Part shown: positions 33,281 to 34,202 of the stretch, in pieces | How the letters are laid out: each line of letters begins with the position of its first letter | Numbering within the stretch: position 1 is the stretch's first letter | Sequence record: PQ141284.1 | From: Escherichia phage fEg-Eco06 | DNA length: 45,491 bases | Direction: 5' to 3' (one strand) | Translations under genes and position numbers: made by a program | The notes under the pieces: generated by a model | What the model was told of the DNA's origin: nothing | What the model saw: only the letters and a program-made list of their open reading frames with translations | Database searches by the model: none

Positions 33281-34202
33281 TTACTGCCCCCATGAATGCC
33301 TTTATAAATTCAGCGGCTACTTGCGGGACGATGGCATTGCCATAACCGCGCAATCGTCCCACTCTGGCGGGTATCCCATTAGCCAGCGGGAATGTGCCGG
33401 GTTCAACTGGCCTGAATTTTCCATCCCGGCATCCGAGCCAGTCTGCCTCTGACCAGAAGCCGTGATGCGGATTGGTCGCGATATTTTCAGTCCCTGCTCC
33501 GTTGAGTAGTCCAGCCTGTCGAAAGTCCGGTCCTTTCCGTCCTTGCGAATCACTGTCTCTCCGCTCCCTCTGTAATCGTTCGCGGTCGGCGTCGCCCATG
33601 CCGTCATCGCGGCGGCCCACCCCAGTTTGTTCGGTTTCGTCCTGCCGTCTGTGCTGCGCATGTTCACGTCGTTTGTTATCAGTGATACTGCTGGCGTGGG
33701 CCAATCTATGCGCGCCGAAGAAAAGTCGGTCGCGTTTGTGCGGTGCGCCGACGCTACAAGCCGGGAGTACGGCAAACCCGACGGCGTAGTTTTCTCCTTC
33801 CAGGTGAGTTTGTAAATCGCACATCCACGATTTTGCAATTGCTGGCGCAACCTGCTCCCCAAAGAGGACTGGAGGGCAGCACTCGCTGATGAGGTCGAGG
33901 AACACAGGTGCGAGGTGTCTCGGGTCGAACTGTCCGAGTTGCTTTCCCGCTGCGCTAAACGGTTGGCAAGGCGGGCTTCCCGTCCAGAGAGGCGCATCTT
34001 CCGGAACTCCCGCAAGTCTGAGCGCGAGAGGCCAGCCGCCGATACCAGCGAAAAAATGACACTGGGTGAATCCGTCGAGGTCTTCTGGCTTAACTTCAGT
34101 AATGCTTCTTTCATCTACAACTCCAAAAGGTATGTGACCCTGTTTTATTAATTCACGCAGCCACGCGGCTGCGCCTTTATCCCATTCGTTGTAATAGTTC
34201 AT
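33273..34202 (-). CDS. DNA (cytosine-5)-methyltransferase
   Basis: Motif I FFAGIGGW, motif IV GSPPCQPFS, motif VI FGEQV, motif VIII APHKRDRLFF and motif X YGNAIVPQVA. The central region is highly charged. Confidence 0.8.
   Translation of the reverse strand: MNYYNEWDKGAAAWLRELIKQGHIPFGVVDERSITEVKPEDLDGFTQCHFFAGIGGWPLALRLAGVPEDAPLWTGSPPCQPFSAAGKQLGQFDPRHLAPVFLDLISECCPPVLFGEQVAPAIAKSWMCDLQTHLEGENYAVGFAVLPACSVGAPHKRDRLFFGAHRLAHASSITDNKRREHAQHRRQDETEQTGVGRRDDGMGDADRERLQRERRDSDSQGRKGPDFRQAGLLNGAGTENIATNPHHGFWSEADWLGCRDGKFRPVEPGTFPLANGIPARVGRLRGYGNAIVPQVAAEFIKAFMGAVNE
33317..34114 (-). CDS. overprinted alternative-frame ORF within the methyltransferase gene (WPTP / LMGYPPEW motif protein)
   Basis: 265 codons on the same strand in a different frame. 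GGAG lies 8 nt upstream of ATG 34114. The C-terminal ~190 aa read [12 protein letters not shown]...[13 protein letters not shown]...DWPTP...[14 protein letters not shown]...[19 protein letters not shown]. Confidence 0.45.
   Translation of the reverse strand: [265 protein letters not shown]

Follow-up and report, generated by a model that had tools for sequence, protein, structure and literature searches.

Escherichia phage fEg-Eco06 (PQ141284.1) carries a cytosine C5-methyltransferase gene in which two overlapping reading frames of the same strand are both maintained by selection. We analysed its DNA as a single stretch of 45,491 nucleotides (nt), referred to here as the window, and all positions are those of the whole window. 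The outer frame (frame A) encodes alpha, the predicted catalytic chain, and the frame nested wholly within it (frame B) encodes beta, a putative small subunit. What can be observed directly is that both open reading frames (ORFs) exist, that they are conserved together, that constraint is specific to the frame and that the start signals are conserved; the locus is confirmed as a case of real and strongly conserved dual coding. Alpha and beta are probably translated independently from one messenger RNA (mRNA), and as a heterodimer they would constitute an orphan C5-methyltransferase protecting the DNA of the phage. Sequence comparison suggests that both proteins are made, that they associate and are both needed, and that beta holds target recognition. 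By its architecture, the pair is best filed with the two-polypeptide C5-methyltransferases of the M.EcoHK31I type, of which it would be a new, orphan, phage-borne member.

Frame-specific constraint

Both ORFs lie on the minus strand where the initial annotation had placed them, and all the peptide strings that it quoted are present. Beta is offset by +1 relative to alpha (34202-34114 = 88 = 3x29+1), on the same strand and in a different frame. Within the gene of frame A, the +1 frame contains 7 stops and the third frame 18, and frame B occupies 265 stop-free codons between two stops of the +1 frame.

To locate selection, we calculated nucleotide diversity per codon position among 23 relatives with at least 60% identity in alpha. 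With the +1 offset, position 2 of a beta codon is position 3 of an alpha codon, which is usually silent, and beta position 3 is alpha position 1. The constrained frame changes along the gene in the order A / A+B / B / A+B / A (Table 1). In alpha codons 1-100, diversity is 0.33-0.49 at third positions versus 0.02-0.39 at positions 1 and 2, and in codons 101-150 third-position diversity drops to 0.16-0.29, about equal to that of first positions. Synonymous sites of alpha are suppressed in both overlap zones. Beta is under purifying selection in its own phase and is open in essentially all relatives. Because of this mosaic of substitution phases, the functional parts of the two proteins appear complementary, comprising residues 1-165 and about 250-309 of alpha and residues 71-252 of beta. 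The same phase bears out three earlier proposals, namely that the first ~75 residues of frame B are a shadow of frame A, that real frame-B sequence begins near 33883, and that the end of frame B is likewise a shadow, namely of motif X in frame A.

The middle section of alpha, which is the variable region of beta read in frame A, is a spacer rich in Arg, Gly and Asp, with an identity among relatives of only 0.10-0.30. When the codons of beta are shuffled, the chance that this section is stop-free in the window is about 0.05, and its openness recurs in divergent relatives. Alpha ranges from 264 to 478 amino acids (aa), and its length mostly tracks how many WPTP modules beta contains; the longest alphas have a separate insertion ahead of motif X instead of extra modules.

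Conservation of the nested pair

The pair is deeply conserved, with strict co-occurrence of alpha and beta in both search directions. With frame A as query we collected 66 IMG/VR loci (42-99% identity), and every locus with enough gene coverage has a beta homologue at +1. Across the 59 full-length loci with alpha in one frame, beta is open nearly end to end with few exceptions, opening 55-106 nt past the alpha start and mostly stopping within about 60 nt of the alpha stop; the position of its stop relative to motif X differs among relatives. The exceptions are phage N15, where beta opens later, and one locus with a single TAA within beta. Two further contigs, both from one metagenome (IMG/VR 3300045988), have 1 extra T in the T6 run of motif I (CAT TTT TTC, equivalent to ~34051-34056), and the resulting shift joins the beta start and its first ~20 residues in frame to alpha, beginning at motif I. 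Because both contigs come from the same metagenome, this shift is likeliest to be a homopolymer assembly error.

In the opposite direction, a scan of species-representative bacterial and archaeal genomes seeded with beta gave 518 loci, the best 80 of which were inspected. All 80 have an alpha-like ORF at +1 (79 clean and 1 with an N-terminal frameshift), and they include loci from Enterobacterales, Pseudomonas, Burkholderiales, Rhodobacterales, Desulfovibrio, Bacteroidota, Verrucomicrobia and Planctomycetes. Similarly, tblastn with beta found matches at +1 to the annotated methylase in N15 gene 58, epsilon15 p22, BcepC6B gp33 and SI7 gp34. There is no same-frame fusion of alpha and beta among the full-length viral relatives or the best 80 genomic loci, and PF00145 is absent in frame from all of 10 long beta homologues examined.

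The beta chain

Beta belongs to a large family. It matches phrog_1008, labelled 'DNA methyltransferase', with an expect value (E) of 5.8e-59 (residues 3-260 against profile positions 2-286 of 329). Its relatives number 5,853 proteins in 90%-identity clusters and 10,011 clusters at 50% identity, 6,406 of the latter at E <= 1e-10. The phage and prophage family with WPTP repeats and a terminal LNPxxxxWLMG(F/Y)PxxW, which the initial annotation had proposed, therefore exists. Beta has no significant match to Pfam, NCBIfam or chains of the PDB. The consensus of 87 homologues reads ...LQSSLxSRLRQxL..GSxLYxLTWKEKxTPSGR..L.ASA.RTS..WPTP, followed by one to several WPTP-anchored modules and then by a block resembling motif IX. 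Modules are gained and lost among close relatives, and beta measures 220-453 aa. An equation of WPTPTAxDxKG with the canonical target-recognition element 'TLSARYYKDG' was considered and found no support in comparisons with Dcm.

The motif-IX-like block is the most conserved part of the beta family, with L237, P239, W244 and P249 invariant in the 87 homologues. It also provides the sole hhalign match between the beta profile and M.HhaI, in which beta 236-252 falls on motif IX (residues 273-289, KLHPRECARVMGYPDSY; E 0.17 and 0.076). Sequence resemblance is thus suggestive of the block being motif IX, and the likeness proposed earlier holds at the level of a motif only.

AlphaFold2 models beta confidently only at a helix (residues 76-93) and a hairpin (101-123), with a predicted local distance difference test score (pLDDT) of 74-89, and at about residues 239-253. 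The helix and hairpin are the part overprinted on motifs VI-VIII of alpha. Residues 1-70 average 41-50 per 10-residue block. Since pLDDT is below 50 at residues 12-59 and 63-73, to which the model gives no secondary structure, most of the N-terminus of beta is probably disordered.

In some lineages, represented by three Klebsiella phage contigs, one further locus and two proteins, the beta frame continues without a stop into another domain, namely Endonuclease_7 (E 6e-24), PD-(D/E)XK, DUF2800 or Dam. These extended frames are either true fusions or adjacent genes with internal starts.

The beta start signal

The beta ATG comes after ttGGAGttgtag, with TAG immediately upstream of it. A GGAG does precede this ATG as the initial annotation had described, at a spacing of 6 nt and not 8 nt. 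In nearly all relatives, an ATG with an upstream GGAG or AGGAG is found +61, +76, +82, +88 or +106 nt from the alpha start. The +106 group comprises eleven loci, including epsilon15, and its Shine-Dalgarno sequence is a perfect AGGAGC formed by the Arg (AGG) and Ser (AGC) codons of alpha in a conserved D-x-R-S-I. The choice of AGG for this arginine in alpha looks to be dictated by the translation start of beta.

Gene 58 of phage N15 is arranged differently. Its +88 ATG opens just a 33-codon ORF, and the frame of beta is open again from about alpha codon 63, with the first Met (MTNDTSGLCFSDSLKSAALQS...) 12 residues ahead of the conserved core. This arrangement fits a long N-terminal tail of beta that is dispensable in other phages.

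The alpha chain

Alpha matches phrog_363 over its full length (residues 1-308 against profile positions 10-317 of 327; E 3.4e-88). It is not a canonical single-chain enzyme as defined by motifs I-X in one chain and by curated cut-offs: its match to PF00145 is partial (60.4 bits, cut-off 22, profile positions 60-182 of 324 only), its score against TIGR00675 (dcm) of 40.6 bits lies under the cut-off of 100.65, and its motifs follow the order II-III, I, IV. For comparison with M.HhaI, whose sequence was checked against PDB entry 10mh, an M.HhaI-family profile was used in hhalign. Alpha 36-166 aligns to M.HhaI 3-172 (E 1.6e-17), so that motifs I (FFAGIGGW), IV (PPCQ, with the catalytic Cys), VI (FGEQV) and VIII (HKRDRLFF) are aligned; FAGIGG, PCQ, GEQV/ENV and KRDR/KRER are among the pairs. 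These four of the motifs read in frame A by the initial annotation are significant, and the fifth, motif X, is a resemblance only. Motif X is reached by neither the Pfam nor the TIGR models; GYGNAIVPQV is paired with M.HhaI FGNSVVINV in a weak hhalign match (E 0.08), and the motif was otherwise recognised by eye.

Alpha residues 2-37 (NYYNEWDKGAAAWLRELI...VDERSITEV; residues 1-37 are window positions 34090-34202) align to M.HhaI 36-72, which spans motifs II-III (E 9e-4), and the alignment of alpha 36-166 (33708-34096) has a 35-residue gap exactly at motifs II-III of M.HhaI. The motif order of alpha is therefore permuted, since the II-III match precedes motif I and a gap stands at the usual II-III site. 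The TIGR00675 alignment likewise places alpha residue 3 at profile position 25.

Five loci have an alpha of 478-570 aa, with an insertion of ~150-190 aa that separates ...DGKFRPVE from ...RVGRLRGYGNAI. Behind the insertion stands a second copy of part of the 'PL..G.P.RV' element. In two of these loci the beta stop lies ~500 nt ahead of the alpha stop. The overlap of motif IX with the segment before motif X looks to have been partly unpicked by duplication in these variants.

Genomic setting

The phage is a Kagunavirus (Guernseyvirinae), whose DNA in this region shares 96% identity with Escherichia phage VB_EcoS-Golestan and 93% with K1ind2 and K1ind3. The ATG of alpha, at 34202, lies on an ATGA stop/start overlap with a small ORF upstream, and the 3' end of alpha overlaps the start of a helicase gene. 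The neighbouring genes form a replication module of the helicase, a small hypothetical ORF, a VRR-NUC/resolvase-like ORF and DNA polymerase. There is no cognate restriction endonuclease among the genes neighbouring alpha and beta, and the methylase is a phage-borne orphan.

A blastn search of E. coli genomes found prophage copies only. In a lambdoid prophage of E. coli ECCTRSRTH03 (NZ_CP041110.1 1933222-1934391), the homologue adjoins an MT-A70 methyltransferase and is labelled by the Prokaryotic Genome Annotation Pipeline (PGAP) as two partial 'DNA cytosine methyltransferase' pseudogene fragments.

Table 1 Features of the nested alpha/beta locus, with substitution rates in segments of beta
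Feature	Position in window	Strand	Rates at beta positions 1/2/3	Remarks
Frame A, alpha gene	33273..34202	minus		309 aa; large catalytic C5-methyltransferase subunit (predicted)
Frame B, beta gene	33317..34114	minus		265 aa; nested wholly in alpha; putative small subunit
Beta Shine-Dalgarno GGAG	34121..34124	minus		inside the alpha coding sequence, 6 nt before the beta ATG (34112-34114)
Alpha codons 1-100	33903..34202	minus		motif II-III-like segment, I and IV; only frame A constrained
Dual-constraint zone 1	33708..33902	minus		alpha VI and VIII over the N-terminal module of the beta core (to ASAHRT)
Beta variable modular region	33419..33709	minus		WPTP at 33692-33703, WATP at 33587-33598; putative target-recognition part
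Beta motif-IX-like block	33359..33409	minus		overlaps conserved alpha PVEPGTFPLANGIPARV; dual-constraint zone 2
Alpha motif-X-like block GYGNAIVPQVAA	33312..33347	minus		alpha identity 0.87-0.90; frame-A-only constraint
Beta 1-70			.12/.42/.18	frame A only; beta an unconstrained shadow
Beta 71-135			.11/.26/.21	both frames constrained
Beta 136-170			.45/.44/.56	frame B, fast-evolving
Beta 171-232			.32/.32/.43	frame B, fast-evolving; peak at beta third positions here and in 136-170
Beta 233-252			.12/.16/.20	low throughout, frame-B phase; both frames
Beta 253-265			.03/.24/.09	frame A only; beta tail a shadow of motif X

Proposed mechanism

We propose a model in which one mRNA would give rise to both chains. 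Translation from the ATG at 34202 would yield alpha, which would supply the catalytic domain that binds S-adenosylmethionine (motifs I, IV, VI and VIII) together with the C-terminal motif X (GNAIVP). Beta would be translated in the +1 frame of the same mRNA from the internal ATG at 34114 with its own GGAG. Its helix-hairpin module probably docks on alpha, its WPTP region would set sequence specificity, and it would add the motif-IX-like block. The middle of alpha would act as a length-variable spacer that need only stay stop-free so that alpha reaches motif X. The heterodimer would then methylate replicating phage DNA and in this way protect it from host restriction.

Several results weigh against this model. 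Neither motif X in alpha (E 0.08) nor motif IX in beta (E 0.08-0.17) is statistically significant, and alpha 257-295 itself aligns weakly to motifs IX-X of M.HhaI in hhalign (E 0.08); because of this match, a degenerate motif IX may be present in alpha itself. Neither the beta profile nor single beta sequences showed a significant match to E. coli Dcm in hhalign, BLASTP or hmmsearch. An in-silico chimera of A(1-165)+B(136-252)+A(283-309), as well as C-terminal pieces, did not extend the match to PF00145 or TIGR00675. The AlphaFold2 models are poor, with a mean pLDDT of 40 for alpha and 57 for beta. Furthermore, the predicted target-recognition domain of M.EcoHK31I was placed in alpha and not in beta (PMC2836561; PMC3404938).

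Base composition bears on the alignment of alpha 257-295. Over 33359-33409, runs such as CCCG and GGGA give Pro and Gly-x-Pro at matching sites in both frames, and the same block reads LNP...MGYP in frame B and VEP...NGIP in frame A. Such runs over motif IX may account for the weak match of alpha to this motif.

Alternative explanations

Three other explanations of the locus have to be weighed against two independently translated subunits. Alpha alone could be a complete methyltransferase, and the overprinted beta a specificity modulator, a DNA-binding regulator or an anti-defence factor. The weak alignment of alpha 257-295 to motifs IX-X in their canonical order would agree with this, as would the lack of any significant match of beta to Pfam, NCBIfam, the PDB or canonical enzymes and the continuation of the beta frame into nuclease or Dam domains in some lineages. 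However, alpha has no plausible target-recognition domain of its own, because its region between motifs VIII and X is unconstrained, variable in length and rich in Arg, Gly and Asp. The most conserved block of beta is moreover the one that resembles motif IX, alpha and beta co-occur strictly whichever is used as the query, and M.EcoHK31I, the sole characterised enzyme of this gene layout, needs both chains. We therefore regard a self-sufficient alpha as unlikely. Of the explanations offered by the initial annotation, a genuinely overprinted second protein is upheld in that beta has a start codon, stays open and evolves under purifying selection; beta does not look like an unrelated overprint and fits the beta subunit of an enzyme such as M.EcoHK31I.

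Programmed frameshifting could instead produce a single polypeptide, passing from frame A to frame B after motif VIII and back after motif IX, or join motif X to beta by a -1 slip. Such a product would need just the A-B-A constraint mosaic that we observe, and a return from frame B into frame A would be a -1 shift, as is usual for frameshifting in phages. Against this, no X_XXY_YYZ heptamer lies between motif IX and the stop of beta; frame B has such heptamers only at codons 114 and 142. The step from A to B would be a rare +1 shift. Frameshifting would also make it needless to keep ~70 unconstrained codons of frame B open back to a conserved Shine-Dalgarno sequence and ATG, or to keep frame A open across the variable region in nearly all relatives, and the beta stop shifts relative to motif X from one relative to another. 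A frameshift product is thus highly improbable. The earlier suggestion of recoding into isoforms is not supported, given that the junction of IX and X has no slippery heptamer and that both frames are open over unconstrained stretches. Another suggestion, that the true enzyme uses frame B for target recognition and motif IX and frame A for the rest after a recent frame switch, is half right. The constraint map does assign motifs I-VIII and X to frame A and the variable region and motif IX to frame B, but the switch cannot be recent because the arrangement is ancient, being present in N15, epsilon15, BcepC6B, a P2-like phage and prophages of several phyla.

Finally, frame B might be a non-functional open frame, due to codon bias or chance, or a frameshifted pseudogene. 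Shuffling frame A does yield fairly long ORFs in the +1 frame (mean 88-98 codons), and 81% of local shuffles leave the first 70 beta codons free of stops. Nevertheless, a +1 ORF of at least 265 codons arose in none of 20,000 codon permutations (maximum 262) and in none of 20,000 synonymous-codon shuffles (maximum 257). Substitutions in the variable region follow the phase of frame B, synonymous sites of alpha are suppressed where the frames overlap under dual constraint, and frame B is kept across phyla in 10,011 clusters. The comparative data in effect refute this explanation, and we give it practically no weight. Searches with the frame-B translation returned homologues, and the frame is open in essentially all of the relatives, two of the points on which the initial annotation had wished to see the second frame checked.

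Implications

There are few long same-strand gene overlaps in double-stranded DNA phages in which selection acts on both frames, and such pairs usually escape annotation pipelines. Most records of this family list 'DNA methyltransferase' alone, and PGAP treats one E. coli prophage copy as two pseudogene fragments, where either alpha is truly broken or the odd middle region misled the pipeline. Our comparisons suggest that phages and prophages commonly carry this nested alpha/beta design and that it is not an isolated exception. In the literature that we searched, neither how widespread the family is nor the attribution of its variable region to beta appears to have been described.

A wider proposition is that the M.EcoHK31I layout defines a very large family of phage and prophage orphan enzymes (~10,000 beta clusters at 50% identity, in several bacterial phyla), in which the target-recognising half, made up of WPTP modules arranged like cassettes together with motif IX, lies wholly in beta and the variable region of alpha is a passenger spacer. 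On this proposition we find the case for and the case against evenly balanced. If it is true, gain and loss of modules would retune specificity while altering both proteins at once, the pair would be among the longest and most widespread same-strand dual-coding pairs in double-stranded DNA phages, and the published placement of target recognition in alpha would need revision. The nested design, if it is as common as our comparisons suggest, would account for the odd 'variable region' of annotated methylases, rich in Arg, Asp and Gly. It would offer many natural split methyltransferases for engineering, as well as a natural system for studying the co-evolution of two proteins on one DNA sequence. 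For phage methylases of the nested type, our results suggest that prediction of specificity should use the frame-B protein.

Comparison with known systems

The nested pair has been visible in GenBank since 2010, where a 'putative Mte8-like protein' (ORF28/29) is nested in a 'C-specific methylase' in phages K1ind1-3, K1G and K1H; RefSeq names both ORFs of the K1 phages 'DNA methyltransferase'. These pairs are orthologous to that of fEg-Eco06, with frame B 75-93% identical, and consist of annotation only. In the literature searched we found no paper that accounts for the nesting or connects phage methylases with M.EcoHK31I, nor the origin of the name 'Mte8'.

The Bacillus phages SPR, phi3T and rho11s encode orphan multispecific C5-methyltransferases, which are single polypeptides in one frame with tandem, exchangeable target-recognition modules. 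As these enzymes are commonly described, the fEg-Eco06 pair resembles them in being a phage-borne orphan with a modular variable region, and differs in using two frames. With M.HhaI and Dcm (PF00145) it shares the core of motifs I, IV, VI and VIII; it differs from them by placing motifs II-III ahead of motif I and by encoding the variable region and the motif-IX-like block in a different frame, for the second chain.

The closest parallel is M.EcoHK31I of E. coli HK31 (YGGCCR), for which the nested layout was reportedly shown by Lee, Kam and Shaw in 1995. Its subunits measure 309 aa (alpha, the length of the phage alpha too) and 176 aa (beta), and its predicted target-recognition domain was reportedly placed in alpha by position. 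Beta of M.EcoHK31I is encoded entirely within alpha in another frame, and both chains are required for activity, with motifs I-VIII and X on alpha and motif IX on beta (PMC2836561; PMC3404938). About 42 N-terminal residues of that beta are dispensable, and internal Met codons can be used as starts (PMC2836561; PMC3404938); the corresponding stretch of the phage beta is ~70 unconstrained residues. Going by the published description, the phage pair is like M.EcoHK31I in that beta is nested in alpha and alpha carries motifs I-VIII, and the likeness extends only as a weak resemblance to motif X in alpha (E 0.08) and motif IX in beta (E 0.08-0.17). Unlike M.EcoHK31I, which belongs to a restriction-modification system, the phage gene is an orphan between a helicase and a DNA polymerase, and the constrained frame in its variable region is beta, whereas published work puts the predicted target-recognition domain of M.EcoHK31I in alpha.

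M.AquI of Agmenellum quadruplicatum is broken within the variable region, with motifs I-VIII on the large chain and motifs IX and X on the small chain (PMC3404938). M.AquI and M.EcoHK31I have been described as exceptions among the monomeric C5-methyltransferases (PMC3404938). The phage enzyme would resemble M.AquI as a two-chain C5-methyltransferase divided within or near the variable region, with motif IX, here the motif-IX-like block, on the small chain. It differs from M.AquI in that beta is nested in alpha and not consecutive to it, and in that motif X returns to the alpha frame, over which the tail of beta is unconstrained.

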